64,000 bases of DNA from a bacterium (lineage in GTDB: Bacteria > Verrucomicrobiota > Verrucomicrobiia > Limisphaerales > RI-55): contig WGOC01000017.1 of assembly GCA_016124235.1 (NCBI GenBank), positions 290,967 through 354,966 on the forward strand. Direction: 5' to 3'. Position numbers and translations under genes: made by a program. Positions within the stretch are counted from its first letter, which is position 1; each line of letters begins with the position of its first letter. The notes beneath the pieces are model-generated. The model was not told the origin of the DNA. It searched no databases and worked only from the letters and a program-made list of their open reading frames with translations. Below, piece after piece: positions 2,651-57,000 of the stretch.

Positions 2651-3700
2651 TTAATTGCCCGAAACGTGATTGGTCGAGTTGGAGGAAAGTATCGGCAGCC
2701 GAGAAAGTTCGCCGGCCAGAACTCTGGTGAAATGCTCGGCCCCACTCGGATTTAGATGATACACGCTGGCGAAATAGCCGTTCGGCAATCGCACCGGCAA
2801 ATTCGTGAGCAAGTAATCGGCGTGCACTGATTGACTAAATTCACGGAGCAATTGGTCTCGACGGTCTTTGAACGAGGCGGCGATCTGTGAATCCGGCAAC
2901 GGTGTGATGCCGACCGCCAATTTGGGTCCCGCCGGGATGCGTGCACGAAGCTCTGCCGCTTCAAGTTTCACCGCGTCGGTAATAACATAGTGTGAATCCC
3001 GCGATTTATTCAATGGGTTGTAGGAACCGTACTCAACCATCGAACCGTTATGCTTCGGCAGATATCCACGCAAATGATATGCGTGCCCATAAAAGAGTGA
3101 AGCATTGCCGTAGAGCGTCATCGGAACCAAATGACCCGCTATCCGATCCTTCGCAATATCGAGCGCCAGCCATTCTTGCATTGGCGTCGCTTCACTACCG
3201 ATCGATCGACCGGCCAACAAATTGTGCCAAAGCCGCTGGTGGGGCGGACTCATGTTCGCGTTCTGCAATTCCTGCGGCGTGACCAGTAACACCACCAACT
3301 TCACCTGCCCTGGATGGTGTTTGATGAATTCGCCCGCGGCATCGCCATAGATGTCCATCCCGATGCCCATGAACATGCCCTGGTTGAGGACTTCGTTGCC
3401 GTCGGGCAGCAACCTGGTCAGCAACGCTGCCTGAACGTCGATCCCGCTGGTCGAATCACCGATGATGATCACGTTGGCGTCGGAGGGTGCGCGCGACATG
3501 TCATAACGTCGCCGCATGAGGACTTCGTCGGGACTCTCCACCGGCGCGGCAACGGGAAGCCAACCGGCCAGACTTAAGAAATGGAGCAACAAAACAATCG
3601 CCGCAACCCCAAGCAACGTCGGCGCAAATACCCGCACCAATTCACCAGCCTTGAATTGAAGTTCATGACTCGTCGCTGGTGTTGAAGGACGGCTGTTCAT
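2651..3700 (-). CDS. Membrane-anchored SGNH/AlgJ-AlgX/DltD-like protein, partner of the upstream MBOAT
   Basis: It has an N-terminal transmembrane helix and an IIIGDSTSG (GDS-like) motif. It lies directly downstream of the MBOAT gene on the same strand. The ATG at 3700 follows the TTG used by the ORF track. Confidence 0.5.
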   Translation of the reverse strand: MNSRPSTPATSHELQFKAGELVRVFAPTLLGVAAIVLLLHFLSLAGWLPVAAPVESPDEVLMRRRYDMSRAPSDANVIIIGDSTSGIDVQAALLTRLLPDGNEVLNQGMFMGIGMDIYGDAAGEFIKHHPGQVKLVVLLVTPQELQNANMSPPHQRLWHNLLAGRSIGSEATPMQEWLALDIAKDRIAGHLVPMTLYGNASLFYGHAYHLRGYLPKHNGSMVEYGSYNPLNKSRDSHYVITDAVKLEAAELRARIPAGPKLAVGITPLPDSQIAASFKDRRDQLLREFSQSVHADYLLTNLPVRLPNGYFASVYHLNPSGAEHFTRVLAGELSRLPILSSNSTNHVSGN

Positions 3701-18974: not shown

Positions 18975-19325
18975 CTTTGCGGTTCCCTGGCCTCTCCAGA
19001 CACGGGGTAACAGGACTTCGATTGAGACCACTCGCGGGCACTTATTCGGCGGCGCCTTTGGATCGCGGAATTCTAATGCTGCACAACGAGACCACATCAC
19101 GCCGCCGCCCCAAAGAAATGGCACCGGTCTTTCCAACGCTGTTCGATGGAACCCGCGTCGTAGCCTGTAACGGCTGGCAACAGAGCCCGGAACTTACAAA
19201 GCGAGACGAATCATCCGCTCCCGAAGACGCGGGCATAGCCGGGTGTTTATCTCAAGCCGAAGTCCGATGGCGAGCTTCGGTGCATTCGGCTTTCCTGCAC
19301 CGCTATTCCGATGATCACCGAGATC

Positions 19326-19736
19326 TTATCCAGCATGGCCGAGAGTGGATCGGGGCCGGAGGGCATCGGCAGAGTTGCTTCCAACTTCTCTTCCGTTCTT
19401 GCACGCTACCTTCCGTGTAGCCGAGCTTCCGCAGTATGGCATGTAAACCGCGCCACAACCACCTTCACCGATCTTCTGGAGTATCTTGTAGCGCCCAATC
19501 TTCTGACCAATCGTTTCATCGGGAACTTCGGTGAACTCGATCTTCATCGTGGCCTTGGCAGCAGCAGCTGGTTCTGCCAGCGCGCCGCTCGTTTGTTCGT
19601 GCGCGGCAAGGAGCGCTTCGATGCGCATACGTAGAGTCGTGTCATCGCCGCAGACAGCTTTGAGGAAGGCGTCTCGTTCCGACGCCGGTTTTTCCAGCAC
19701 CATTCCAAACAAGACCTCTTCGCGATTCACATTCAT
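19326..19736 (-). pseudogene. Truncated 5' fragment (about 100 homologous codons) of an ECF-associated Ser/Thr kinase paralog
   Basis: MNVNREEVLFGMVLEKPASERDAFLKAVCGDDTTLRMRIEALLAAHE...IGRYKILQKIGEGGCGAVYM parallels the N-termini of both intact kinases up to the glycine loop. Homology then stops and the remaining 37 aa are unrelated. Confidence 0.6.
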
Positions 19737-19752
19737 GGCTGCGCTAGCTTCC

Positions 19753-20448
19753 TTATTTCGCAGATATCGGCGCTGCACACTTGGCGGACCGCGAGCGCAG
19801 CCACTCCTCGTATTGCATCACAATATCGGCGACGGGGACGGCGCAGGTGATGCAGACCCAAACGACCGTCTCGATCATCGACGGCCCCAGCTTTTCCAGT
19901 CCGGTCACTCCGAGAATCACGCGCACGGTCACAAAGACCACCGGCCCAAGGAACAGGCTGCGGGTCATCCACTGGCGATGTTGTTGAACCTTGCCCTTGA
20001 GAATCAGGACGAAGGCGATGAGGGTCGTCACCATCCACAACATTCCTTGGGTTGCTGCAGCCAGAGTGAAGGATTGCGTCCCGCCGGTCCGTTCCTGGAA
20101 GAACTGAATATAGGCTCCCGTCAGACCGGCGATGATTGCTCCAACTACGTAAATCCTCCCGGCGATGCGGTGCAGTCCGGTATAACGCCGGCGGAGACGT
20201 TCCGAGAACTGCATGGGTGCCAGCACAAACGCGCAGGCCCCGCCCAAGCCATGCACCAGTAGCCACCATTTGAACGGCTGGTAGTGGTTCCAGACCGGTG
20301 CTTGCGGATCCACAATAAACCGTTCGTTGTGCTGGAGCACGTAGATCGCCATCAGTCCAAAGAGGGCAAACAACAGATTTTTCGGTTGCAGCCAGGAGCG
20401 GGATTGGGGTTGTGCGGGAGCGCTGGGAATGGACGTGGCCAAGTTCAT
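19753..20448 (-). CDS. DUF2306-like polytopic membrane protein
   Basis: Six predicted transmembrane helices. The ATG is at 20448. It lies between the two kinase 5' remnants. Confidence 0.5.
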   Translation of the reverse strand: MNLATSIPSAPAQPQSRSWLQPKNLLFALFGLMAIYVLQHNERFIVDPQAPVWNHYQPFKWWLLVHGLGGACAFVLAPMQFSERLRRRYTGLHRIAGRIYVVGAIIAGLTGAYIQFFQERTGGTQSFTLAAATQGMLWMVTTLIAFVLILKGKVQQHRQWMTRSLFLGPVVFVTVRVILGVTGLEKLGPSMIETVVWVCITCAVPVADIVMQYEEWLRSRSAKCAAPISAK

Positions 20449-20478
20449 TGGTTTATCGGGTGTTTCATGGGTTAAAGG

Positions 20479-20586
20479 TTATTGAATCTGTTGTTGCCGT
20501 AAACGGCATTTGAGATATGCGGCGCGTTCAGACGCCAGTTTTTCCAGCGCCAACGCAAACAGGACTTCTTCGCGATTGGGGTTCAT
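20479..20586 (-). pseudogene. 35-codon remnant of a Ser/Thr-kinase 5' end (MNPNREEVLFALALEKLASERAAYL...)
   Basis: It is about 85% identical at the nucleotide level to the 5' end of the 19326..19736 fragment (compare 19670-19736). Confidence 0.45.
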
Positions 20587-20615
20587 TTGGAAATCATCAT
20601 GCGGTTGCGCCGGCT

Positions 20616-23480
20616 TCACTTCGCGTCCGGCTCGGGCAGGGGGATGCCTTTGGCCTTGAAAAGCGCTTCGGCTTCACGTTGCCTCGATTCCGCCTGATAC
20701 GTTTTGACCCAAGGCTTAACCCAAGGTCCCTCGCCGCCGCGGTCATGCCCCGGCTTGTCCCCAAGTGCCCGCTTCAACTGGTCGCGGGCTTGCGCGAAGT
20801 CCCGGGGGGGCTCCTCCAAGCGCCCGAGTTCGGCACAAAGCATCGCCCTGATAAACCGTGAGGAAGCCTGTTGGGCTGGATCCGTCAGTGTGACTCCGGT
20901 TCCCGGCCGAGAGCTGGGCGTGCCAAAAAATCTTTCTATCAATTCCAGGCCTTCGGGGTATCGATGTTCGCGATAGGCCAGGACGGCGCGGACGGAGTTG
21001 ATTTGGAGCTTGATAAAGATCGAACCGTCATCGGCCCGGTCCATCAAGGCACGTGCAATGGCCAGGGTCTCCTCGTCCATGGGTTGCTGATACAGGCCGG
21101 CCACAACCAGGAGGGCCGCTTTTCCCTCTACGGTTGAGGTGAAGCGAAGGAAGCAGGTCTGCCTGAGTCGCTCGAAGGAATCATGGTCGCCGATGGCGTT
21201 AGCTACGACGGCGGCGTTAAACCAATCCATGACATCGGAAAGCCGGTTGGTGGCCACGGCCTCCAGAATCGGCAGAGCTTCCCGAGCGTTGCCGGAGCGG
21301 GCCAGGACGGCTCCGCGCAGCGCATCCAGTCGGACCAGATCTGTCCCGGAACCGCCGCGACTCACCAGCAACCGGCGTTGCTCTTCCAGCATTGCGGTCG
21401 CCTCCGCGAAACGGTCCTGCCGGCAAAGCGTGTTGCTCAATTGCACAATCAGCTGCAGGTATTCGGCCCGGACTTCGGGGTCCAGGTAATTTGGCTTCCC
21501 CAAGTATTCAAGGGCGACCCGTTCGGCCCGCACGGGATCTGTTGGCCCCACTACTTCAACGTATTTGGCCGCCACTTGGATTCGCAAGGAAACCGAGGCC
21601 GGGGTATTGAGGAGCAGTTCGTGAGCTTCCACAATCGCCGCTTCCGCCTCGTTCGTTCTGCCGACGAATCCAAACCAGTTCGCCTGGTAGAACCTGCAAC
21701 TGGCAGCGAACTCTTTGGCAGGCGGTTTCCGCCCCATGAACTCCGCATAGAGGCGTCCCAAATCCTTCATGGCCTGTTCCTGCCCCGGGACCTGGTCCCC
21801 GGCCGCCCAAAGACGGGTTTCAGGAAGAGCAATTCTTATCTCGTCACGCGGCTCGCTGAGTTGCCCGTCAGTGACTTTCGGCAGGAGCCGGTTCATCAGC
21901 TCCGCCTGGCGCAACGCACCTTGGGCATCGTTCAGATCAATCAGGGCGGCGCGCAATTTCCAACGCAGCCTGAGTTCTGCCGCCGGGGTATTGGACAGGG
22001 ACGACGACGCCAGGACATCCGCTTTGCTGATCAACTCCCGCGCACCGCGGACATTCCCTTGCTGCAGCAGCGAGGGCAACTGTTGCGATACCAGGCTGTC
22101 GATGAAGGTCGTCACGGTGTCCGCCCGGACGGATTGCGTGCGCTCCCGTTCCCGTGCGGCTCGCTCGCGCAGGAACGCGGCGGTGGCGAGTCCCAGACCC
22201 AGAACCAGGGCCAGCGCAACGCTGGCGACCCCGACGGTGGCGGCCTTGTTCCTTCGCACCATCTTCTGGAGCCGGTAAAGCTGGCTGGGCGGCCGCGCGA
22301 CGACGGGTTCGTTGTCGAGATGTCGCTTGATGTCGGCGGCGAGACCGTTGGCCGATTCGTAGCGGCGGGAACGATCCTTCTCGAGACACTTCATCACGAT
22401 CCAGTCGAGGTCGCCCTTGAGCTGGTGCAAGAGTCGTGAGGTGTCCACCGAGCGGCGCTTGGCGGTGGTAGTGAGGTCGTCACCATGCAACGTCGCCAGC
22501 TTGGTCGAGGGGCGAGCGGGTTCTCTCTCCCGGATGGTCTTGCGCATCGCATCCAGTCCCATCGACATCAACTCCCGACCGTCAAACGGTGTTCTTCCCG
22601 TGAGCAGTTCGTAGAGCAGCACCCCCAGGCTGTAGATGTCGCTCCGCGTATCAATATCCAGCCCGCTCATCTCCGCCTGTTCCGGACTCATGTACGCCGG
22701 GGTCCCGATGAACTGGTGCAATTGCGTGTAAACCGTCGCGTCGGTCAACCGCCCCTCGGTTGCCTTGGCGATCCCGAAGTCGATCACCTTCGGCACCGGC
22801 ACGCCATCGTGCAGCGTCACCAGGATGTTCGAGGGCTTGATGTCCCGGTGGATGATGCCCTTCTGGTGGGCGTGCTGGATGGCGTGGCAGACCTTGATGA
22901 ATAGATCCAATCGTTCCTTGGTGGAGATCTTCTCCTGGTCGCAGTACTCCGTGATCTTGATCCCCCGCACCAGTTCCATCACGAAGTAGGGACGGCCCTG
23001 TTCTGTCGTTCCTGCATCCAGCACCTTGGCGATGTTGGGATGGTCCATCATCGCCAGCGCCTGGCGCTCGGCTTCGAAGCGGGCGACGACCTGTTTGGTG
23101 TCCATCCCCAGCTTGATGACCTTTAGCGCGACTCTCCTTCTTACCGGCTCGGTCTGTTCGGCCACATAGACCACGCCACAACCGCCTTCGCCGACGCGTT
23201 CCAGCAGTTTGTAACGTCCCAAGGTCTGGCCGATCGCTTCGTCGGGCATATCCACCATATCCACACTGATCGTTGCCCGCGCCGCTTCAGGTTGACCATC
23301 CAACACTGAATCTGCCCGCTCGTGCGCCGCCAGCAACGCTTCCAGGCGCTGACGCAAACCGGCATCATCACCGCATTCGCGATTCAGGAACGCGGCTCGC
23401 TCATCTCCGGACTTCGTCACGGCCAGCGCAAACAAGGCAGCTTCTTTTTCCTGGGATGCAGGCATGGGCTCTGTGTTCAT
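20616..23480 (-). CDS. Ser/Thr protein kinase with N-terminal ECF-sigma-associated helical motif and long TPR-like C-terminal region (cassette 1)
   Basis: Kinase motifs: [33 protein letters not shown] and [11 protein letters not shown] transmembrane segment sits around residue 420. The C-terminus is helical and repeat-rich. Confidence 0.9.
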   Translation of the reverse strand: MNTEPMPASQEKEAALFALAVTKSGDERAAFLNRECGDDAGLRQRLEALLAAHERADSVLDGQPEAARATISVDMVDMPDEAIGQTLGRYKLLERVGEGGCGVVYVAEQTEPVRRRVALKVIKLGMDTKQVVARFEAERQALAMMDHPNIAKVLDAGTTEQGRPYFVMELVRGIKITEYCDQEKISTKERLDLFIKVCHAIQHAHQKGIIHRDIKPSNILVTLHDGVPVPKVIDFGIAKATEGRLTDATVYTQLHQFIGTPAYMSPEQAEMSGLDIDTRSDIYSLGVLLYELLTGRTPFDGRELMSMGLDAMRKTIREREPARPSTKLATLHGDDLTTTAKRRSVDTSRLLHQLKGDLDWIVMKCLEKDRSRRYESANGLAADIKRHLDNEPVVARPPSQLYRLQKMVRRNKAATVGVASVALALVLGLGLATAAFLRERAARERERTQSVRADTVTTFIDSLVSQQLPSLLQQGNVRGARELISKADVLASSSLSNTPAAELRLRWKLRAALIDLNDAQGALRQAELMNRLLPKVTDGQLSEPRDEIRIALPETRLWAAGDQVPGQEQAMKDLGRLYAEFMGRKPPAKEFAASCRFYQANWFGFVGRTNEAEAAIVEAHELLLNTPASVSLRIQVAAKYVEVVGPTDPVRAERVALEYLGKPNYLDPEVRAEYLQLIVQLSNTLCRQDRFAEATAMLEEQRRLLVSRGGSGTDLVRLDALRGAVLARSGNAREALPILEAVATNRLSDVMDWFNAAVVANAIGDHDSFERLRQTCFLRFTSTVEGKAALLVVAGLYQQPMDEETLAIARALMDRADDGSIFIKLQINSVRAVLAYREHRYPEGLELIERFFGTPSSRPGTGVTLTDPAQQASSRFIRAMLCAELGRLEEPPRDFAQARDQLKRALGDKPGHDRGGEGPWVKPWVKTYQAESRQREAEALFKAKGIPLPEPDAK

Positions 23481-23555
23481 TCATACTGTAGTGCGCATTC
23501 CAGCTGCAAAAAGTATGTGGGCGAATGCAATATACTTTTGGCTCGTGTTTCACGC

Positions 23556-23783
23556 ATGACAACGGTGAAAACCATGAACGATTCCGACTTCAAATTCTAC
23601 TGTTCCTGCTGCGACCAACCGCTGAAGTGTGATCCGTGCCACGCGGGGCGGCAGATCCAATGTCCCGCCTGCAATCACCTGATCCGCATTCCCAGCCCGC
23701 CTCCCGGAACCGGGTTTACGCATGTGCAACCGGAGTCGGGCCGCACGTGGGATACTTTTGTCCCCAAGGGACGCCAGGCGTGA
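23556..23783 (+). CDS. Small zinc-ribbon protein (75 aa) in the sigma-kinase spacer of cassette 1
   Basis: MTTVKTMNDSDFKFYCSCCDQPLKCDPCHAGRQIQCPACNHLIRIP has a CxxC...CxxC...CxxC arrangement. The second sigma-kinase cassette has only a 108-bp spacer and no comparable ORF. Confidence 0.3.
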   Translation: MTTVKTMNDSDFKFYCSCCDQPLKCDPCHAGRQIQCPACNHLIRIPSPPPGTGFTHVQPESGRTWDTFVPKGRQA

Positions 23784-24374
23784 TTACCGTTTCGAGTGCT
23801 CGTCAGGACTCGATGGTCCACCGCGCATTTCCACCGACAACCAGGCCCGGGCATAGGCCCACCATTGCTTGGCGGTCGGAATAGCAATACCCAAGGCCGT
23901 GGCGGTTTCATTAAACGTCATCCCGACAAAGTACCGCAGCTTGACCAGTTCGGCTTTGCGGGGATCGACGGCGGCCAGCCTTTCCAACGCTTCGCTGACC
24001 CGCAGCAGTCCCTCATCATCGGTAATCGGCGAAGGGATCTCGACCTCATCGAGGCCCAGTCGCTCCGCCCCACCACCACGCTTGGCGGCCAGACGCCGAC
24101 GGGCGCGCTCAACCAAAATCCGGCGCATGGCCTCGGCAGCAGCCGCAAAAAAGTGGGCGCGATTTTGCCAGGCTGGTTGGGCGTCGCCACCGAGTCGAAG
24201 CCAGGCTTCGTGAACGAGGGCGGTCGGCTGCAGCGTCTGGCCGTCGCGTTCGTTGGCCATCCGGCTGGCCGCCAGTTTACGCAATTCGTCGTAAACCAAC
24301 GGCAACAATTCTTCTGCCGCCTGTAAATCACCGGAATCAATTGCGCTGAGAAGCGTGGTCACGTCGCCGGGCAT
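23784..24374 (-). CDS. ECF-subfamily RNA polymerase sigma-70 factor (Planctomycetes/Verrucomicrobia type), cassette 1
   Basis: MPGDVTTLLSAIDSGD...ALVHEAWLRL (region 2) and RYFVGMTFNETATALGI (region 4 helix-turn-helix). It is transcribed ahead of the kinase on the same strand. Confidence 0.85.
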   Translation of the reverse strand: MPGDVTTLLSAIDSGDLQAAEELLPLVYDELRKLAASRMANERDGQTLQPTALVHEAWLRLGGDAQPAWQNRAHFFAAAAEAMRRILVERARRRLAAKRGGGAERLGLDEVEIPSPITDDEGLLRVSEALERLAAVDPRKAELVKLRYFVGMTFNETATALGIAIPTAKQWWAYARAWLSVEMRGGPSSPDEHSKR

Positions 24375-24520
24375 GAGCTGACGCTAATCCCGCCAGCTTT
24401 CGTTGGCCAGACTGAAGCCGGGAATGGAATCGGTCGCGTTCGCCTGTGCAAACGTTCGATCAAAAACTTCCTCAATCAAAAGAAAGTCCGAAACTACCAC
24501 TCGTCGCCAAGGTGTCCCCA

Positions 24521-25366
24521 TTACGTGCCGATGGCGTAGGCCGCCTTGCCGTCGGGCAGACGCCAGATGCCGGCATCGTCCGTGGTGCGGGGCAGCTGGC
24601 TCGCCAACAAATCTCGAACGCGTTGGTAAGCTGGCAGGACCGAGGAACTGACTTCCGTTTCGGCCGCGGCCACAAGTTCCCGCCGCCTGGCCCCGCTCAC
24701 CTCGTCATCCAACCTGGTCAGGCGAGCGTTCAAGGTGGTGACGAACGGATTGGAGTCCGGCGCGTTCGCCGTGAACTTGTCGATCTGTTCGATGGAGCGC
24801 TCGACAATGAACTTCGGCGGGAGAAACCCGGCGGTGGCAGCTGCCCGCGCTTCGGCGATGCCTTCATCGAGCAACGGACCGACCCGGGCCAGCCGGACAA
24901 GATAGTTCTCCGCGTCACGCTCGTTTCGGATCGGATGAACCGTGGTTAGAAAGTGAATGAGCGCCACATGCACTCCGCGAAAATGCTCAAACATGAACTT
25001 GTGCCGCGCAAACTTCTCCTCCTCCACAGCCTGCTCGCAGGTCCAACGAATCACCGCCGCCGAAATGCGCTGGCCCGGGCTGAGCCGGTCGTCCGGATAA
25101 CGTTTCAACTCATTCAAGCCGCGCCGGGCGAGCGCGGCGTCCTCATGGGCCGCCTTCACGCCCCGGTCCAGCACCAGCCGCCGGTCGATGGCGTCCTGCT
25201 CGGCACCTTCGAAGTATTGGGTGCGTGTGGCGAGCTGCGGATGAGCGCGAGCCCAGTCGGCGGCGAACTGGTCGGCCCATTGATCGAACGACGGTTCGGC
25301 AGCGTGGACGACGAGAGTCGCGAGGAGGCCGAGCGCGAAAACGGTGATGGTTGTTTTCTTCAACAT
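24521..25366 (-). CDS. DUF885-family protein, N-terminal half only (possibly truncated)
   Basis: Signal peptide plus RNERDAENYLVRLARVGPLLDEGIAEARAAATAGFLPPKF, which matches the DUF885 N-terminal region. Full-length members are about 580 aa. No continuation was found in any frame downstream. Confidence 0.45.
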   Translation of the reverse strand: MLKKTTITVFALGLLATLVVHAAEPSFDQWADQFAADWARAHPQLATRTQYFEGAEQDAIDRRLVLDRGVKAAHEDAALARRGLNELKRYPDDRLSPGQRISAAVIRWTCEQAVEEEKFARHKFMFEHFRGVHVALIHFLTTVHPIRNERDAENYLVRLARVGPLLDEGIAEARAAATAGFLPPKFIVERSIEQIDKFTANAPDSNPFVTTLNARLTRLDDEVSGARRRELVAAAETEVSSSVLPAYQRVRDLLASQLPRTTDDAGIWRLPDGKAAYAIGT

Positions 25367-25384
25367 TGTTTTGAGTTGTTGACG

Positions 25385-28165
25385 TTATTGAAGCTTCGCC
25401 TTGTAGGCATCGATTCGGGCTTCGAGTTTCGACAGCTTGTCGCGCCAGACGGCGGCTTTCTCCGGTTCCTTCTTCAATTCATAAAGCCGTACCAGCCGCG
25501 CCAAGTTCTGCGGAATCGGAACCAGGGAGGCCGCTCGCAAGCCTCCGCCCCAGGCAACATCCTGCTTTTCGTGAATCTGCGCGCAATGGAGGAGCAGTTC
25601 CTCCGCTTCGTTCAACTCACTCGTCCCCGGGTTCGGTTTCTCGATCAAACAACCGCCGAGGAGGGACAAGGCCCAGGCGTAATTCGCCTGGTCAAAGCCG
25701 GTGAGCGCCTGCGGGCTGCTCAGCGCTTCGTAGGTTTTAACCGCTTTGCGCAGCGTCCGCTCCGCCGTGACCAGGTCGCCGGTTTGCTGCGACCACAGGC
25801 CTTCCCACATCAGGGCACGGGCGGTGTTGACGCTGTTGGGTCCGGAGGCGCTCCGGCAGATTTCGACGAGTTGCCTCACTAAAGGTGCGGCTCCCTTTGG
25901 GTCCTGGAGGCAGGCCAAATAGGTCGCAACCAGGGTATCCATCAGCAATACGGTCGAGGAATGTGCCTCGCCGAAGACGGCCTTGTAACGTGGCAACAGC
26001 CCCTCAAGGGCCGCGGCGCCTTCTTGATACCGGAACTGAAAAATCAACAGGACCGCGCTCCATCGTTCGGCCTCGAGGGTATTGGGGTGGTCCGGCCCAA
26101 GCTTGTCGTTGAACACCTGAATGGCGTGCTTCAGGAGCGGCCCGGCTTCGCCGACGCGAAGATTACGGGAGTAATCCTCCCCCAGTGCCTTGTCCACTTC
26201 AGCCATCACCACGTCGTCCGCGCCGATCAAGGGGGAGTGCCTGGCTGTTTGGCGGAGCTCCTCCAACTGCCGATGCATTTCCTTCAAATTTCCAAAATAG
26301 AATTGGAGGAATGCCAGCCCGAGGCGGGCTCGGATGCTGTCGGGATGTCCTTCTCCCTGCACCCGCGTGCGAAACGCCGCGGCGCTTTGCAGGAGACGGC
26401 TGGCCTCGACCAAGTCACGATCGGTCCGGCGCAGTTCCACCAACGCTGCCGCCAGCGCCTCCTGGGTGACGGGAATCTCGAGATCTGTGTTCGGCAAGCC
26501 GCTCTCCAAAACCGGCAACGCCTCGCTTAATTGCTTCACGGCCTTGTTGTGGAGCCCGATCCCCCCGTAAACACGCCCCGCCATGCTGCGGATGCGCGCT
26601 TCGACCAGCGGAGACTTGTGGGCCTTCCGATCCAGTTCCTGACACGCGCGGTCCAAAACAGTTTGTATGGTCAAACCGCCAGGAGAGTTTTTTCCGGGAT
26701 TGAATTGAGAGAGAACGTCCCCCCACAGGAAATCGTAGACGGCCTGGGAGTCGGCTTCTGCAGTCACCGCCCGCTCGCGCGCTGTCTCGGCATCCTTCTG
26801 TTTTTCCTGAGCCAGAATTCTCTGCTTTAGCTCGGCGCGCCGAGCCGCTTCCGCAAGCTGGCTTGCCCGGGTGGCGCGAACGGCTTGAAACGTGGCAAAA
26901 CTAGCTGCCAGAACCAGCAATGCCGCAATCACTGCCGCGACGCGCATATACTTGCGATTCCTGCGGTAGAACTTGTGGAACTGGTAGCTGAACGTTGGCG
27001 CGGCTGCGGATACGGGTTCGTTGTCCAAATGTCGGCGGATGTCCGACACCAGTCCATTGACCGTTTCGTAGCGATGCGTCCGGTCCTTCTCCAACGCCTT
27101 CATCACGATCCAATCCAGATCCCCCTGAAACTGCTTGCGCAGGGCCACGACTTCCACGCTTCGCTTGTCGGCGGTAACCGTGAGTTCCTCACCCTGCATG
27201 GTGCTCATGCGCGTGCTCGGCTTCGGTGGTTCCTTCTCCGCGATCACCCGCTGCATCTCGCCGTAGCCCATGCTCAACAACTCTTTGCTTGGAAACGGCG
27301 TCGTGCCGGTGAGAAGTTCGTAAAGCAAAACCCCCAGCGAATAAACGTCCGTCCGCGTGTCCACGTCCAGTTTGCTCATCTCCGCCTGTTCGGGACTCAT
27401 GTACGCCGGTGTCCCGATCATCTGGGCGTAGTTGGTAAAGAGCGTCTTCTCGGTGAGCTTCTGGTTCGTCGCCTTGGCTATACCGAAGTCGATCACCATC
27501 GGGTGCGGCTCGCCGTCATTGAGCGTCACCATCACGTTGCTCGGCTTGATGTCCCGATGGATCACCCCCTTCTGGTGCGCGTGCTGGATGGCCTGACAGA
27601 CCGGGATGAAAAGGTTGAGCCGTTCCTGCGTGGAGAGCTTGTTCTTGTCGCAGTACTCGGTGATCGGAACGCCGCGCACCAGTTCCATGACGAAGTAGGG
27701 ACGGCCGGTGTCGGTGGCTCCGGCGTCCAGCACCTTGGCGATGTTAGGATGGTCCATCATCGCCAGTGCCTGGCGCTCGGCCTCGAACCGGGCGACGACC
27801 TGTTTGGTGTCCATGCCAAGCTTAATGATCTTGAGAGCGACTTTGCGAACAACGGGCTCAGTCTGCTCGGCCATGTACACCACACCCATCCCCCCTTCAC
27901 CGACTTTCTGCAAAAGCTTGTAGCGGCCGATCATCGTGCCGGGTTGTTCCAGTACCGGCGTAGCCGCCAGGGTGGATGCGCTCACGGTGTCACCTTGATC
28001 GAACAAGCTGTCCGGGTTCTTCATCGCATCCAGAAGTGATTCCACTTCCTTTCGTAATTCGGCATCGGGGCAGGCTCGTTCGAGATAATCGTGCCGCTGA
28101 GCATCCGTTTCCAAAGCGGCGGCGGTTTCAAAGATGGCTTCCAGTTTTTCGCGTCGATTTTTCAT
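25385..28165 (-). CDS. Ser/Thr protein kinase with TPR-like C-terminal region (cassette 2)
   Basis: Kinase motifs: [34 protein letters not shown] and [10 protein letters not shown]. It is a paralog of 20616..23480. Confidence 0.9.
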
Positions 28166-28273
28166 GGGGTTTCAAGCGTTCAACTGGTCTGGCGACGTTT
28201 CGCCCCGCGATCGGACAGGAATTCTGAAAAAAATTACTTCACCGATCCGCACCGATAAATCGGTTGTCTTTGT

Positions 28274-28852
28274 TCAGGCAGTGCCACGGGGCTCGTCGTC
28301 CCGCTGTATTTCCCGGCTGAGCCACGCCTTCGCGAAGTTCCAATGCCGTTGAACCGTTTTGTCCGAGCATCCCATGATCGCCGCAATCTCCGCCACGCCC
28401 AGCCCCGCGAACACCCGCAACTTTACGATTTCAGCCTTCTCGGGATCGTCATTTGCGAGCCGTTCCAGATAGTCGTTGACGCGAAGACACTTCTCGTCGT
28501 TTTGAGCGATGGGCAGGTCCATCGCGTCGAGTGGCACGCGCTCCATCCCGCCGCCATGACGGATCCTTTGCTTGCGCCGGGCGTTGTCGACGAGGATGCG
28601 GCGCATTGCTTCGGCGGCGGCGCTGAAAAAGTGTTCGCGCCCCCGCCACTGTTGTCGGTCCGAACCGGCCACGCGGAGCCAGGCATCGTGGACCAGGGCG
28701 GTTGCTTGAAGTGTCTGACCAGGCTTTTCGTTCGCCATCTTGTGGGCCGCGACTCGGCGGAGTTCCTCGTAAACCAGCGGCAATAATTTCTCCGCAGCAT
28801 TCGAATCGCCGGAATCAATCGCGCTGAGCAGCTGGGTGACGTCGCCGGGCAT
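28274..28852 (-). CDS. ECF-subfamily sigma-70 factor, cassette 2
   Basis: MPGDVTQLLSAIDSGDSNAAEKLLPLVYEELRRVAAHKMANE is a paralog of 23784..24374. The ATG is at 28852. The track ORF from 28999 adds a spurious leader. Confidence 0.85.
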   Translation of the reverse strand: MPGDVTQLLSAIDSGDSNAAEKLLPLVYEELRRVAAHKMANEKPGQTLQATALVHDAWLRVAGSDRQQWRGREHFFSAAAEAMRRILVDNARRKQRIRHGGGMERVPLDAMDLPIAQNDEKCLRVNDYLERLANDDPEKAEIVKLRVFAGLGVAEIAAIMGCSDKTVQRHWNFAKAWLSREIQRDDEPRGTA

Positions 28853-29082
28853 GGACGAACGGTAATCAGCCTTGCCGCATTTACGAGCAACAACTTTCAC
28901 ACGGCCCGGCCCGACTCGGAAAGGAACGGAGTCACGAATGTTTTTCGTTCGTTCACGCACGACTCCGGTTCTCCGGAGCCAATCGAATCGAATAAGCAAA
29001 GGGGTTGGTTGCGTCGCTCAATGCATCTCACACCGTTGACTTTGCAGGCCGCCAAAAGCGCTTTAAAATTACCGCCCACCAA

Positions 29083-37418: not shown

Positions 37419-40040
37419 CTATTCAAACGATTGTCCGGACTTCGCCTTGGGCTGGCCGGCGTAGGTGATCCTTTTGCCTGGCTGATAAAGGTTGAGTTCG
37501 TGAATTGACCAGAAGAGTCCGTCCACCTTCCCGGTGTCCGTGATGCGGATGAACCGCGCCTTGACCGGATCAAACGCAATATCGGTCACCGGACCGTCAC
37601 CCTTGCCCTTGGCGACAGGATCGCTCCACGTTTTGCCATCGTCAGAAACCCGCACTTCGTAGCCTCGCGGATAATCGCCATTCGACCCCCGGGTGTTGAG
37701 ATTGATCTCGGAGACCGTCGTCGCCTTGGGCAACTCGATCTGGAACCACATGCCCGGAACTTGCGGCGTGCCCGTGTCGAACCGCGTACCGAGATTGCCA
37801 TCGATCGCGTTGCGAACCTTGTTCTGGTTGTGGCTGGCCGTCAGTTTCCACGCCTGCTTGTCACCGATCTGCTGCGGCAGAACGGCGTGCAGTTCATCGA
37901 GCGTCCAGGGCGTTGTGCGCGCGGCTGATTCGGTGCGAACCTTGGCCACTTCCGCCGGCGTCACGAACGAGGATTCATTACCAAAACTGTTGCGAACGTA
38001 CGAGGCGATCGCCGCAACCCACTGATCGTCGTTGGCACCCATCGGCACCATCAACGCCGTGTAGTTCTTGCCATCAACCGGCCCGTTCAGACCGTGCAGA
38101 ATCACATTGATGACACCGGCCACATTTCCGTTGACCGTTTTGGATCCGGCGAGTGGTGGAGCCATCGTTCCCTTCGCACCTTCCATCGGCGCGCCCTTGC
38201 CGTTGCTTCCGTGGCACGCAAAACACAGTTCCTTGTAAGTCGCCGCGCCGTCCGCGAGTTGTTTGCGCTCGGCGGCGCTCAACTGCACCGGCGGACGCGA
38301 ATCCTGAGGTCCATTGAGCAGTTGTCGCGCAATCTCCCGAACGCCTTTTGAGGAGGAATTCGCGGCGGCCGCTTCAATCATTGGTTTGGCCTGGTCAAAC
38401 TTTAGCATTTCCATTGTCAGCATCGCCTGGATCGCCACTTCCGGACTGCCGTCCAGCGCGGCCAGTTTCAAATCGAGGTGCAAATCGTCATTGCCGGCCT
38501 TGAACAACGATTCGGAAGCGCGGATTGCAGCAACGCGGACATGCGGATCCTGGTCCATCAATCGCGCACGAATAAATTCCGGATCCAAGGCACCCAGGCC
38601 TTCCAATGTCCAGATCGCGTGAATACGGGTCAGTTCGCTGCGGTTGTGCTCAGCCATGTCCTTCAATGCCGGCACGACCGATTTATCCTGACGTAACACC
38701 AGCAGTTTCTGCGCGGTGTCACGTGTCCAGCCGTTATTGCTTTCCAAATGTGTCACCAGGGTGGCGGGCGATTCGTCGAGCATGTGGGGCGAATCCACCT
38801 TGCGGGTGTCGACGTGTTTGAGCCGCCAGATGCGGCCGTGGTCGGTGTTCTTGTCGAACTGATATTGCTGCACAATCGTGCGCAGATAGCTGCCCGGCCG
38901 CACCCAATTTCCTTCCTGAATGATACCGCGGTACATGTCGGTGATGTACATCGTGCCATCGGGCGCATTGGCGATGTTCACCGGGCGGAAATTAGGATCG
39001 TGGGACCGAATGAATTCCGAACCGGGATACGCATTGTGCAAATACGTGATCCCGTCGATGACTTCGACCTTCGACCGACGGATCAATCGCCCAACCGGCT
39101 CGCCAAAAAGCAAATCGCCCTGAATATCGTCGGGCAATTGATCGCCCCGCACGATGGCCGCACCGCAGGTCGCCGTAAAATGGTTGAGCGTCTTTTCCTC
39201 CGGCCGGAACCGCGCCGTTCCGCCTTGCACATCGGGAATCGCGACGAGCGGATAGACTTCGCGGTAATCGGGGGGAACGTCGTTCGCGACATTGAACGCG
39301 CCGTAAACGATCGGCACCTGAAAATTCAACGGACCCCGTTCGCCGCCGGCGTTGACGATCCACGGCTTGCCGTAATTATCCTGCGTCAGGCCCCATTGAC
39401 CACCATTGGGCGCCGTTGGTTCGCGCACAATTCCGTTTGGCGTCCAGCGAATGCGCCAGGCGTTGACGGTCGTGTAAATCCAGTTGTCGAGCGACCAGAT
39501 CAGGCCGCTGGCTTGATGTTCCAAATTCGCCCGCCGAGGTTCACTGTGATAGAACAGTTCCTTCTTGTCTGCGACGCCATCGCCGTCGGTGTCCCAATAA
39601 CGATAGATGTCGCCCGAGTCGGTTTCCCTCACGAGCAGGCTGTCATCCAGCGGGAGCAACATGCGCGGCAGCACGAGATGATCGATGAACACAGTGTGCT
39701 TGTCGTATTTGCCGTCGCCATTCGTATCGACGTGCATGGACACGCGGCTGACCGGCGCATGTTCATTGGTCCCATCGATGTTCTGCATGTAGGACCGCAT
39801 CTCGGCCACGAACATCCGACCGTTGCCGTCAAAAACAGTGATGACCGGTTCCTCGATAACCGGCTCCGAGAGTACCAACTCAAGCTGGTAACCGGATGGC
39901 AGTTCAAATTGTTTCAACTCATCGGCCGGTGACAACATCGGCGGGCGCGGCTGGGGCGGCAACTTGGCATCCGCGGCGGAAAGGGTTCCTGCCGGCAAAA
40001 GCAATGCCAGCAACATGGAGCAAACAACGAACTTGTTCAT
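37419..40040 (-). CDS. PVC-type multi-domain protein: putative membrane-bound dehydrogenase domain + HEAT-like repeats + heme-binding CxxCH + F5/8-type discoidin domain
   Basis: Signal peptide, beta-propeller-like N-terminal half, CFACH heme c motif, and a C-terminal discoidin-like region (NLGTRFDTG...WFQIELP). Confidence 0.75.
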   Translation of the reverse strand: MNKFVVCSMLLALLLPAGTLSAADAKLPPQPRPPMLSPADELKQFELPSGYQLELVLSEPVIEEPVITVFDGNGRMFVAEMRSYMQNIDGTNEHAPVSRVSMHVDTNGDGKYDKHTVFIDHLVLPRMLLPLDDSLLVRETDSGDIYRYWDTDGDGVADKKELFYHSEPRRANLEHQASGLIWSLDNWIYTTVNAWRIRWTPNGIVREPTAPNGGQWGLTQDNYGKPWIVNAGGERGPLNFQVPIVYGAFNVANDVPPDYREVYPLVAIPDVQGGTARFRPEEKTLNHFTATCGAAIVRGDQLPDDIQGDLLFGEPVGRLIRRSKVEVIDGITYLHNAYPGSEFIRSHDPNFRPVNIANAPDGTMYITDMYRGIIQEGNWVRPGSYLRTIVQQYQFDKNTDHGRIWRLKHVDTRKVDSPHMLDESPATLVTHLESNNGWTRDTAQKLLVLRQDKSVVPALKDMAEHNRSELTRIHAIWTLEGLGALDPEFIRARLMDQDPHVRVAAIRASESLFKAGNDDLHLDLKLAALDGSPEVAIQAMLTMEMLKFDQAKPMIEAAAANSSSKGVREIARQLLNGPQDSRPPVQLSAAERKQLADGAATYKELCFACHGSNGKGAPMEGAKGTMAPPLAGSKTVNGNVAGVINVILHGLNGPVDGKNYTALMVPMGANDDQWVAAIASYVRNSFGNESSFVTPAEVAKVRTESAARTTPWTLDELHAVLPQQIGDKQAWKLTASHNQNKVRNAIDGNLGTRFDTGTPQVPGMWFQIELPKATTVSEINLNTRGSNGDYPRGYEVRVSDDGKTWSDPVAKGKGDGPVTDIAFDPVKARFIRITDTGKVDGLFWSIHELNLYQPGKRITYAGQPKAKSGQSFE

Positions 40041-53390: not shown

Positions 53391-53777
53391 ATGCCTGAAT
53401 CATCCGTTGAATTGACCGAAGCCGAATGGGCCATCATCAAAGCCATCTGGAAGTCCGAGCCCACCACCGCCCCGGCCGTCCAGGAGGCGCTCTTCAAACA
53501 AACCGGCTGGACCTACAGCACCGTCCGTACGCTCATGGATCGCATGACTGTCAAAGGGCTGCTCAAGGCGACCAAGAAAGGCAAGGTCACGAGCTTTACG
53601 TCGGCCGTCACGCGCGCCCAGGCCCAGCGCAGCGAACTTCTTTACGCGTTGAAGCACGCCTTCAATGGTGCACTCACGCCGATGGTTCAGTGCCTTCTCG
53701 AATCGCAAAAGCTGAGCGATGCCGAGATCACCGAACTGGAAACGCTTATTCGCGAGCGCAAACGGAGGGGGAAATGA
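53391..53777 (+). CDS. BlaI/MecI/CopY-family transcriptional repressor (penicillinase-repressor fold)
   Basis: LTEAEWAIIKAIWKSEPTTAPAVQEAL...WTYSTVRTLMDRMTVKGLL is a winged-helix BlaI signature. The ATG is at 53391. Confidence 0.85.
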   Translation: MPESSVELTEAEWAIIKAIWKSEPTTAPAVQEALFKQTGWTYSTVRTLMDRMTVKGLLKATKKGKVTSFTSAVTRAQAQRSELLYALKHAFNGALTPMVQCLLESQKLSDAEITELETLIRERKRRGK

Positions 53778-53937
53778 AAACGACGACAAACGAAACCGCG
53801 AAGCTAGTTCCTCGCGCAAACGCTGGAACGGCCGACGGTCCAAGGACCAAGGTTCAAGCCCAAATGAAACTTCAATTACCAATTCAACAATCCGCCATCA
53901 AGTCGCCCCAAACGTTGACTCTTCCATGGGTTGATTG

Positions 53938-53983
53938 TTGGAAGTTCCCTGGAACTTTGACCTTTGACCTTGGAACTTCACCC
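53938..53983. promoter_or_regulatory. Palindrome/direct-repeat cluster in the blaI - blaR1-secretin spacer
   Basis: Near-perfect 16-bp palindrome AAGTTCCctGGAACTT (53942-53957), tandem TTTGACC x2 (53956-53969), and a third TTGGAACTTCA (53970-53980). It lies 30-75 bp upstream of ATG 54013. Confidence 0.35.
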
Positions 53984-54012
53984 GTCCCCCCTGCGAACAA
54001 ACATGATCCCGT

Positions 54013-57000
54013 ATGAACGGATTCATTGAACAACTGAACCAGTGGGGATTGACCGCGATTCCCTTCGCCGCCCAACTGCTGTGGCAGACGAGCGTGTTGA
54101 TCGTGGTGTTGCTGGCACTGGATTTGGTCCTGCGCAACCGGGTGCGGGCGGGCTTTCGTTACACGCTCTGGACGTTATTGCTGGTCAAGTTGGTCCTGCC
54201 GCCAACCATCGCCTTCCCGACGGGCGTGGGTTATTGGGTCAATCGATCGACTAAAGAAACGCCTGTGCAACAAACGGTGGTCCTTCAGCCAAAGTTCGAA
54301 GTCGCTTACCCAACCGTCGTAACCACCGAGGCATCAGCTTTCCAAAGCGTCCAAAACTTCGAACCGCTTCCGGCAACCGAACCAGCACCACCACCACCGA
54401 CACCGAAGCTCTCGCGCGATGGCTGGTTGTTGGTTGCTTCGGTGAGTGGCACGTTGCTTCTGCTCAGTTGGATGCTCTGGCGCTGGCGTTGGGTCAACCG
54501 GATCGTCAAAGCCAGCACGTCGGCTGCTGATGAACTTCAGCAACTCGCGGTTGATTGTATTCAATCGATGAGGTCGTCCGGCGCCAGTGTGCTGCCGGCA
54601 GCTTGCCGGCAGAAAGACAGGCGAGACGCCTCTCCTACCCTGCGGCTCACCGATGCTCCGATGTCACCAGCGGTGTATGGTCTATTTCGTCCGGTCATCT
54701 TGTTGCCCCGACAACTCGTGAGCCGGCTCTCGATCGAGCAACTCCGCACCGTTCTTCTGCACGAGTTGATCCATCTGCGCCGACGTGATCTCTGGGTGAA
54801 CTGTCTGCAGTCGATTCTGCAAATCGCGTGTTGGTGGCACCCGTTGCTCTGGTTGGCTAATGCCCGGATTCGACGCGTCCGCGAGGAAGCCGTCGATGAA
54901 GCGGTGGCCAGCGCGTTGCGCGACGACGCCGATGCCTATCCCGCAACTTTACTCGAAGTCGCCAAATTCACCATTACCCGACCGTTGATGACGCTCGGAT
55001 TGGTCGGCATTTTGGAATCGAAGAACGCCCTGAAGCAACGCATTCGTCGCTTGCTCGAACAAAAGCCTCTCGACAGCACTCGTCTCAAGTGGTGGCAGTG
55101 GACCGCTCTCATCGGCTTTGCCCTCGCCGCGCTGCCGATGGCTCAGGGGCAGCGCGATTTCTCCAGCCAGAAGAGCAAAACGTCCACCGCCGAAGAATTG
55201 CCAAAGCCAAATTCGAATTCGCCCATAACTGAGAATGACAGCACTCCCACCAACGTCTCGGTTGAAGTTCGAATCATAGAAATCGCGGAAACCAATTTGC
55301 ACAACCTCGGACTTGATAGGCCGGACTGGATACTTCCGACCGGACTCAACACTCCGGAAGCGGTCAGCTTCAAGGATGGTCTGGCAATCCTTACGGACCC
55401 CCAATTCCGCATAGTCATCAAGGCCTTGGAACAGAGGCAGGGCGTCAATCAATGGTTCGTCCCTCGTGTCACTACCGCAAGCGGGAAACCGGCCCAATTT
55501 AGACTGACCAACTCGCCGACTTCGGGTCCACGCCAACAGAACAGTCTTCTTCAAGATTTCAGTCCTTTGATCGACGTCATTCCTTATGTCGCGGCTGACG
55601 GAGCAATGATTCAAACGACGGTCGCCGCAACCGTAGGTCCGTTTGCGGATGCCACGGGATCGGCCAATTCCCTGTCTCGTCCCGGAGGTGGGGATTTAGC
55701 AGATCCAGCACATAAATCCTATTTTCAAGACTGGAGCAACCGAGGGACAGAAATTAACGCCGATGCGCCAAAACCTTCACCATTCCATATTCGGAGAATC
55801 ACAACCACGGCAAACGTCTGGAACGGTCAAACGATAGTTCTCGCAGGCTCACCCGGTCATTCGCGGGCAGGCGACTCAACCAACACGACTCAGACCCTCG
55901 TGTTTGTCACACCTTCCATCGTCGGCAAGCAGCTCGACTGGTCTCGCGCAAATACAAGGCCACCGCAACCCACGGGGAAAAAGGATCAAGGAACTGATTC
56001 GAATCCCACTGAACCACCGACCAACGAGAAACGGGACAGTACCAACCCCAATACGCAAACGACCGACCTCTCGAACTTGGTCTCCGCCGCTGCCGTCGAT
56101 CTACAGGCCCAGAAAGACACGCTACGCTCGCTTTGCGATAAACTCGGATACGTGAAGCTTTGGACGTTTGACACCGCAACAATCAGCAGTCCGTTTGTGG
56201 AGCATCAACTAAAGTTACTTGAACCGCAGAAGCCAGAACTTCAGGCGTGCATTGATCAGCTAAGGGAAGCGCGCAATCGGCAAAACACCGTTGAAATGCG
56301 GCTGGCCCAGACAAAGATTAACGCCGAACTGAACAAAAATCGCGGGCCATACGATCAACGCGAAGCGGCTGGCGCAATCTCAAACCAGCTTTCCTCCGTT
56401 GCACTGGAGCTTGAACACGCGAGATCAGAATATGAACGACTAAAGAACGAGCTGGGATCCGACCCGTCACTCAATCCTGAACAAACGCTCAGCAAGTCCG
56501 AGTTTCTTCGACTGCTCCCCGTTGTGCAGGCGGGAATCAAAGTCAACCAGTGCTCGAACGTGTTGGAATCGCTAAGAATTGCTGCGGCGAAACAGTCCGC
56601 ACAATTTGAGGGCGGTGTTCCATCCAATTTGCCGGGCTCAGATATAAGTAGATTCTCGCCTCCCTATTCACTCAACGATACGAACTTGGACGTCATGGGC
56701 CTGCACATGATCCGGGATCAATCCTCTTGGCCGGATTCGCGGTTCAAGGGTTATCACCCGATCGGTTTGGAACCGCGCTTTGTGCTGGTTCCCATCGAGG
56801 GATTGAAGAAGGCGCTGAACGGTCAACTGCCGGTCGCCCAACCGCTCATCGTCGCCTCAAACCAACTCGACGCGCTGACCAACTCATTGATCGAAGCCGG
56901 CGCGATGGATCATTCATCCGCCGAGCCGATGCGCTTCGGCAAGATGAGCGGCGGTGTTTTCCACTGGAACGTCGCCAGTAACGCCGTAGCGCGCGTGCAA

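Follow-up and report, generated by a model that had tools for sequence, protein, structure and literature searches.

We analyzed a 64,000-nucleotide (nt) stretch of the verrucomicrobial genome assembly GCA_016124235.1 (contig WGOC01000017.1, positions 290,967 to 354,966; henceforth referred to as the window), with a focus on two gene pairs that each encode a sigma factor of the extracytoplasmic function (ECF) type and a Ser/Thr kinase, and on a conserved module at the N-terminus of these kinases. Direct sigma factor phosphorylation is a recently established signalling route of which few examples have been studied. The module bears on the question of how such a kinase finds its sigma factor, and how paralogous pairs encoded in one genome stay insulated from each other.

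The two cassettes, S1-K1 and S2-K2, and two kinase remnants all lie on the minus strand. The order of transcription is S2, K2, a DUF885 gene, S1, K1, remnant 2, a DUF2306 gene and remnant 1 (Table 1). Family matches and translations agree with the initial annotation, which had described two intact sigma factor/kinase cassettes and two decayed kinase remnants. Its account of each cassette as a sigma factor gene followed by a kinase gene holds for both pairs, with the amendment that the 303-nt gap between S1 and K1 contains a conserved gene on the opposite strand, here called zr, which the initial annotation had not listed. The label "Planctomycetes-type" was dropped, as the closest relatives of all parts are found in the Verrucomicrobiota (Pedosphaera, Limisphaerales). 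The start of S2 was set at 28852 from the Pfam match and the MPGDVT start, in an open reading frame (ORF) that remains open to 28999.

Table 1. Features of the cassette region, in order of descending position in the window (aa, amino acids)
Feature	Position	Strand	Details
S2, ECF sigma factor	28274..28852	-	192 aa from MPGDVTQLL; PF07638 E 5e-62; TIGR02999 216.7 bits
K2, Hanks-type receptor Ser/Thr kinase	25385..28165	-	926 aa; Pkinase E 1e-44, residues 82-308; TPR_12 E 2e-18
K2 N-terminal module	28016..28156	-	residues about 4-50; independent profile E 1.1e-6, profile positions 2-47
Truncated DUF885 gene, between cassettes	24521..25366	-	PF05960, profile positions 18-219 of 532
S1, ECF sigma factor	23784..24374	-	196 aa; PF07638 E 1e-58; TIGR02999 209 bits
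zr, zinc-ribbon protein gene	23574..23783	+	69 aa; same place in at least 19 related loci
Palindromic element, zr/K1 intergenic region	23493..23550	.	18-locus alignment
K1, Hanks-type receptor Ser/Thr kinase	20616..23480	-	954 aa; Pkinase E 2e-46, residues 90-376
K1 N-terminal module	23301..23462	-	residues 7-60; independent profile E 1.2e-11
Remnant 2, kinase 5' scar	20479..20586	-	35 codons; profile E 1.7e-4, positions 5-28 only
DUF2306 membrane protein gene, between remnants	19753..20448	-	PF10067 E 8e-22
Remnant 1, kinase 5' scar	19326..19736	-	137 codons; profile E 4.3e-12

Both sigma factors are of the PF07638/TIGR02999 type and belong to group 4, with no domains other than sigma-2 and sigma-4. 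They exceed the TIGR02999 cutoff of 126 bits, share 58% identity, and each adjoins a Pkinase gene; a protein identical to S1 is present in NCBI (P0277). In sigma-2.2, S1 has the sequence TLQPTALVHEAW, and S2 has TLQATALVHDAW (LQATALVHDAW). At the site of the usual acidic sigma-2.2 motif, S1 has Q49-P-T51-A and S2 has Q-A-T-A, and T47, L48, Q49, T51 and A52 are invariant among 20 homologues. The linker that joins sigma-2 to sigma-4 is acidic, with DDE after S115 and T118.

In ordinary sigma factors, an acidic DAED/DxxD motif in sigma-2.2 contacts the beta-prime subunit of RNA polymerase (PMC8999054, PMC13147305). In ECF43 sigma factors this motif is replaced by STTA/QTTA, and a co-encoded Hanks kinase phosphorylates the Thr, which is needed for activity; the requirement was established for EcfP/PknT and for EcfK/PknS, in the latter case at EcfK T51 (PMC8999054, PMC13147305). 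Sigma factors of the ECF43 type are intrinsically inactive until phosphorylated and have no anti-sigma partner (PMC8999054, PMC7826278), and ECF groups associated with kinases are typically without anti-sigma factors (PMC7826278). Thr51 of S1 occupies the ECF43 phospho-acceptor position. Given the Q-x-T-A motif, the PF07638/TIGR02999 family and the adjacent Hanks kinase, the cassettes belong to the known ECF43-like kind of sigma factor/kinase system. Judged from sequence, they are two paralogous ECF43-like signalling cassettes, a class read from motif, family and neighbour. By analogy with the studied pairs, each kinase would transfer phosphate to its sigma factor. None of the cassette ORFs matched an anti-sigma family in Pfam or NCBIfam, although zr, which has no family match, could be an unrecognised regulator. 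Inspection by eye of the sequence upstream of the sigma factor genes in 37 loci revealed no convincing shared promoter motif.

K1 and K2 share 60% identity over residues 1-450 only and are unrelated beyond. Both have an N-terminal module, a linker, a kinase domain, a hydrophobic/transmembrane (TM) segment and C-terminal TPR repeats, and neither has lost the catalytic motifs VALK, HRD, DFG or SPE. Over its first 400 aa, K1 shares 75-85% identity with more than 100 proteins whose sensor domains differ. From these features, K1 and K2 are classed as transmembrane Hanks-type kinases with an extracytoplasmic TPR sensor.

A three-helix module at the kinase N-terminus

We searched the six-frame translation of the window with a profile built from 79 metagenomic modules, none of which came from the window or its close relatives. 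There were exactly four matches, in remnant 1, K1, K2 and remnant 2, with E-values from 4e-12 to 2e-4; the next best hit had an E-value of 1.2. The N-terminal motif that the initial annotation reported in two kinases and two remnants is thus recovered, and in K1 and K2 it forms a conserved module that precedes the kinase domain, as had been proposed. The motif is whole in K1, K2 and remnant 1, whereas remnant 2 retains the first half only and lacks the C-x-D...LL part. The consensus pattern originally written for the motif had zero literal matches in six frames. K1 departs from it by one extra residue in two places (E-x3-F and C-G-D-D-x2-L), and K2 has QR for ER.

AlphaFold2 (AF2) places three helices in the K1 module, at residues 8-21, 25-36 and 40-60. 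The predicted local distance difference test score (pLDDT) was about 90 over residues 11-50 in two runs, one in the context of residues 1-400 and one with the module alone, and fell to about 30 (<35) over linker residues 60-86. The 1-400 model is poor outside the module (mean pLDDT 51.5, shallow alignment) and is uninformative on packing against the kinase domain. On these models, the module is predicted to fold on its own, with a disordered tether of about 25-30 residues between it and the kinase domain. Conservation falls mainly on hydrophobic core positions and on R, D, R and E, together with a single conserved Cys, and the net charge is -3 to -5. In K1 numbering, the conserved residues include R28, C36, D39 and R43. 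Within this acidic three-helix module of ~50 residues, the motif makes up the hydrophobic core and the conserved polar positions. The fold is similar to a generic helical protein-binding unit. Neither Pfam nor NCBIfam gave a match to the N-terminal 85 residues of the kinases, even at E-values up to 10. Homology of the module to the sigma factor itself was considered and rejected (hhalign probability 0.2%).

When 1.84 billion cluster representatives were searched exhaustively by profile, at least 24,575 clusters matched the module with an E-value of 1e-3 or better; the N-terminus used as a word-indexed query retrieved 8 short fragments only. The ten long matches that were examined are all kinases in which the module sits at the very N-terminus and the sensor, of TPR or WD40 type, varies. 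In some proteins, 2, 3 or 10 modules stand in tandem before the kinase domain.

Among all PDB sequences, the sole match to the profile was chain A of 9EED, PknS(1-364) from Xanthomonas citri, at residues 10-54 (E 4.8e-5). The independent metagenome profile also matches the PknS peptide. The module is, on this sequence evidence, homologous to the N-terminal segment of Xanthomonas PknS, a kinase that directly phosphorylates the ECF43 sigma factor EcfK (PMC13147305). Residues 1-81 of PknS are invisible in the crystal and were modelled by AF2 as 3-4 helices with a flexible linker; the wider distribution of the segment was not noted in that study (PMC13147305). We found no further description of the module in the literature searched beyond the PknS paper. 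The module is a genuine and widespread domain without a curated family, and PknS is its one experimental foothold.

Two of the multi-module proteins are a ten-module kinase (P0009; L207, 546-4016) and a protein with three modules (P0108). Stand-alone module ORFs of 69-146 aa that lack a kinase domain account for 6 of 55 metagenomic copies (L086, L090, L102, L118, L122, L144), and these short ORFs could be scars or small module-only proteins. We also considered module-TM-sensor proteins without a kinase domain, which would be analogues of anti-sigma factors. This candidate class was rejected: the three long ORFs of this form are explained by a chance read-through and by an insertion sequence (IS) that entered two genomes at one and the same site.

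Linkage to sigma factors and possible roles of the module

We assembled a verrucomicrobial set of 113 module copies in 80 loci that were found through the module; 67 copies were informative and 18 had <3 kb of upstream sequence. A sigma factor gene lies directly upstream of 36 copies, and a further 17 follow another kinase gene with a sigma factor gene in view, so that sigma-headed arrays hold 53 of the 67. The sigma factor gene was about 3 kb upstream, beyond our 1.5-kb limit, for 1 copy. Another 2 copies stand behind another kinase gene in arrays whose head is in view and has no sigma factor gene, and 11 have no sigma factor or kinase gene within at least 3 kb upstream. For 28 copies behind another kinase gene, the array head lies off the contig. 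The common form of the array is one sigma factor gene followed by two or three kinase genes, and the array kinases all keep the module, whatever their sensor.

A metagenome sample was drawn solely by a degenerate DNA pattern for RAAFLxxACxxDxxLR and is mostly of the acidobacterial "MTPERWQQVE" type. A TIGR02999-like sigma factor gene was directly upstream in 45 of 68 informative loci (median gap about 11 nt); in the remaining loci it was elsewhere in view (5), the module copy stood behind another kinase gene (2), or none was found (16). A kinase domain follows the module in 49 of 55 copies. Annotated plasmid cases span Planctomycetota, Gemmatimonadota and Betaproteobacteria. On a Paludisphaera plasmid a sigma factor gene is followed by a module-bearing kinase gene, the same order and module as in the window, and the association occurs twice in Gemmatirosa. 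In loci anchored on the sigma factor, both kinases (2 of 2) have an N-terminal extension, one of which is significant by profile. The module is strongly but not absolutely tied to TIGR02999-like sigma factors in several phyla, and it is the one feature common to the sampled sigma-linked kinases of these phyla and the biochemically proven PknS.

Our leading reading, held tentatively and at somewhat less than even confidence, makes the module a protein-binding domain on a tether, with the role of recruiting the sigma factor as substrate. It draws on the restriction of the module to a kinase clade, its presence in PknS, the linkage to sigma factors, the retention in arrays, the flexible tether and the acidity; the acidity and the up to tenfold multiplication fit a protein-binding unit. 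In such a mechanism, the sensor domain would activate the kinase, and the tethered module would capture the cognate sigma factor and keep it near the active site, providing both efficiency and partner specificity. The kinase would phosphorylate Thr51 in sigma-2.2, and perhaps also Ser/Thr residues of the sigma2-sigma4 linker. The added negative charge would then enable the sigma factor to bind the beta-prime subunit of RNA polymerase, and transcription would start. One sigma factor could be fed by several kinases with different sensors, and the role of the module would be substrate recruitment, not inhibition.

Several observations weigh against recruitment. About a quarter of the module-bearing kinases have no sigma factor in view, the ten-module kinase has no adjacent sigma factor gene, and some sigma factors of the PF07638/TIGR02999 family have no adjacent kinase gene. 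On the Eleftheria terrae plasmid NZ_CP106953.1 (L084, 4932-9717), the order is a sigma factor gene, a module-less kinase gene and a kinase gene with a Cys-less module, so the kinase that adjoins the sigma factor is the one without the module. The conserved Cys of the module is also missing from PknS, which was assayed only with its N-terminal segment present and for which no deletion was made (PMC13147305). Across 28 module/kinase domain/sigma factor triples, the module covaries with the sigma factor given the kinase domain (partial Mantel r 0.47, p 0.001), but the covariation between kinase domain and sigma factor is stronger (0.76), and shared ancestry could suffice as an explanation of the former.

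The stronger covariation of the sigma factor with the kinase domain than with the module also favours a second reading, which we judge somewhat unlikely: the module would be an intrinsic regulatory or oligomerisation element of the kinase, acting by autoinhibition or dimerisation-driven activation, and its association with sigma factors would reflect descent of the clade from a sigma-linked ancestor. Module-bearing kinases without a nearby sigma factor exist, as such an element would allow, and the conserved R, D, R and E could pair in salt bridges inside the module. In contrast, the long disordered tether and the invisibility of the segment in the crystal are more in keeping with recruitment in trans than with a fixed regulatory contact (PMC13147305), and PknS(1-364) autophosphorylates with the segment present (PMC13147305). 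AF2 leaves the module unpacked on the kinase domain, in a model that is poor outside the module, and tenfold tandem multiplication would be odd for a dimerisation element.

The initial annotation had called the module anti-sigma-like. An anti-sigma-like domain would sequester the unphosphorylated sigma factor at the membrane and release it on phosphorylation. The topology is like that of single-pass anti-sigma factors, in which a helical domain in the cytoplasm at the N-terminus is followed by a TM helix and a sensor on the outside; the module is acidic, and the sigma linkage supports sequestration equally with recruitment. Like the class I/zinc-associated anti-sigma (ZAS) domains (RsrA, RslA, ChrR and the N-terminal part of RseA), the module is a small N-terminal cytoplasmic helical domain of a single-pass protein encoded next to an ECF sigma factor. 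Unlike them, it has three helices rather than four, no H-x3-C-x2-C ZAS motif and no sequence or profile match: the N-terminal 85 residues hit no anti-sigma family in Pfam or NCBIfam (zf-HC2, RskA, RseA_N and others), and comparison with solved anti-sigma domains gave no specific structural match. Sequestration would also be unneeded, because ECF43 sigma factors have no acidic beta-prime contact and need phosphorylation to be active (PMC8999054), and kinase-associated ECF groups typically do without anti-sigmas (PMC7826278). The absence of a family match, of the ZAS motif, of homology to the sigma factor and of any need for sequestration led us to discard the qualifier, and we consider an anti-sigma role very unlikely.

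We compared the cassettes to previously described systems. PknS-EcfK of Xanthomonas citri (PDB 9EED, PMC13147305) has the same arrangement of an N-terminal extension of ~80 residues, homologous to the module, a kinase domain, a TM helix and a periplasmic TPR region, and EcfK, like S1, has its sigma-2.2 Thr at position 51 in a Q-x-T motif. PknS-EcfK is a single cassette tied to a type VI secretion system, whereas we found paralogous cassettes and high-turnover kinase arrays. The sigma2-sigma4 linker is already acidic here, unlike in PknS-EcfK, and the K1-type cassette has the additional antisense zinc-ribbon gene. In PknT-EcfP of Vibrio parahaemolyticus, the sigma factor likewise lacks the acidic DAED motif, is co-encoded with its kinase and is activated by phosphorylation of a sigma-2.2 Thr, with no anti-sigma factor (PMC8999054). 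The planctomycete groups ECF59-ECF62 and ECF217 are, like the cassettes here, kinase-associated sigma factors of the Planctomycetes-Verrucomicrobia-Chlamydiae superphylum without anti-sigma factors (PMC7826278). Groups other than ECF43 retain the acidic motif (PMC8999054), which is missing from S1 and S2.

If docking by the module is true, it would explain the 83-residue PknS segment, provide a sequence marker for sigma-kinase partnerships in genomes with dozens of such genes, and justify a new domain family. If the module is not a docking site, the cassettes would be ordinary members of a known system.

The zr gene, gene decay and other features of the window

The zr gene is convergent with S1 and divergent from K1; its stop codon abuts that of S1 and its start is about 95 nt from the K1 start. 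In the related loci that have zr at the same place, the encoded proteins are 63-83% identical. The entropy at codon positions 1, 2 and 3 is 0.33, 0.27 and 1.01, synonymous changes make up 59% of all codon changes, and stops are absent in frame and present in the other frames. By these sequence criteria, zr is clearly predicted to be coding. The protein is in NCBI as the hypothetical protein MBI1177565.1, its 90% cluster has 490 members, and it matches no Pfam or NCBIfam family.

The region between zr and K1 contains a palindrome with inner arms AAGTAT-N15-ATACTT at 23511-23537, nested within outer arms of the CATGCG..CGCAT type (CATGCGCAA / TTGCGCATG-like). It is unique in the window, where 0 matches are expected by chance. 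Across 18 loci the right arm is nearly invariant, and the changes in the left arm are uncompensated. The element has the look of an operator or of two paired divergent promoters, not of an RNA stem, and on either strand we infer promoter-shaped elements of the form ATACTT-N17-CATGTA.

The zr gene is conserved beside the 5' end of the kinase gene, also where no sigma factor is in view (L043, L066). This association, and the resemblance of the module to a generic helical protein-binding unit, would suit a module that binds some other common partner, such as the RNA polymerase core, a phosphatase or, in the verrucomicrobial lineage, the zr protein. We regard this as quite unlikely. No other conserved neighbour was seen across phyla, and zr is found neither in the S2-K2 cassette nor in the acidobacterial-type cassettes, which have the same module. 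Since these module-bearing cassettes lack it, zr is a lineage-specific addition and cannot explain the module. A broader proposal would make the module a dedicated sigma-recruitment docking code that sets kinase/ECF43-type sigma pairs in at least five phyla (Verrucomicrobiota, Acidobacteriota-like soil bacteria, Planctomycetota, Gemmatimonadota and Pseudomonadota), with zr and its palindromic divergent promoter as a third component. We consider this combined proposal doubtful.

In remnant 1 the motif is complete and is followed by the linker and the kinase glycine loop (GEGGCGAVYM), after which the frame is lost and the rest of the kinase is absent. By tblastn, K1 matches this remnant over residues 12-120 (48% identity) and nowhere beyond. 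Remnant 2 reads MNPNREEVLFALALEKLASERAAYLK over the first 26 kinase codons and continues into unrelated sequence. The DNA of the two remnants, which flank the DUF2306 gene, is closer to each other than to K1 or K2. To place these remnants we took a census of the 79 module copies that do not run off their contig: 40 are intact, 9 are frameshifted, and in 25 no more than 130 of the 295 aligned residues of the kinase domain are left. One internal deletion junction recurs in two genomes (L002, 5778; L049, 3359), as does one insertion site of an IS or long foreign ORF (L005, 5131; L032, 4349). In another locus (L052, about 3560-3629), a sigma factor gene has a module 5' scar immediately upstream. 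Truncated copies are typical, and the remnants are scars of a fast birth-and-death gene family. The DUF885 gene between the cassettes, of which the N-terminal part only is present and the C-terminal part was not found before S1, is a further sign of rearrangement; it is probably a pseudogene that arose by insertion or rearrangement of the S1-K1 block.

Downstream of remnant 1, a weak sigma-2.2-like fragment of the ALVH.AWLR type (19100-19156, minus strand; tblastn E 0.02-0.1) may be debris of a further cassette, or a chance match. Elsewhere in the window, an 873-aa protein with DUF7133, HEAT repeats, cytochrome c and an F5/8 type C domain is encoded at 37419-40040 (minus strand). A 1618-aa protein with an N-terminal BlaR1-type M56 peptidase domain and a C-terminal secretin domain is encoded at 53426-58869 (plus strand), and an overlapping 196-aa ORF without a family match precedes its gene.

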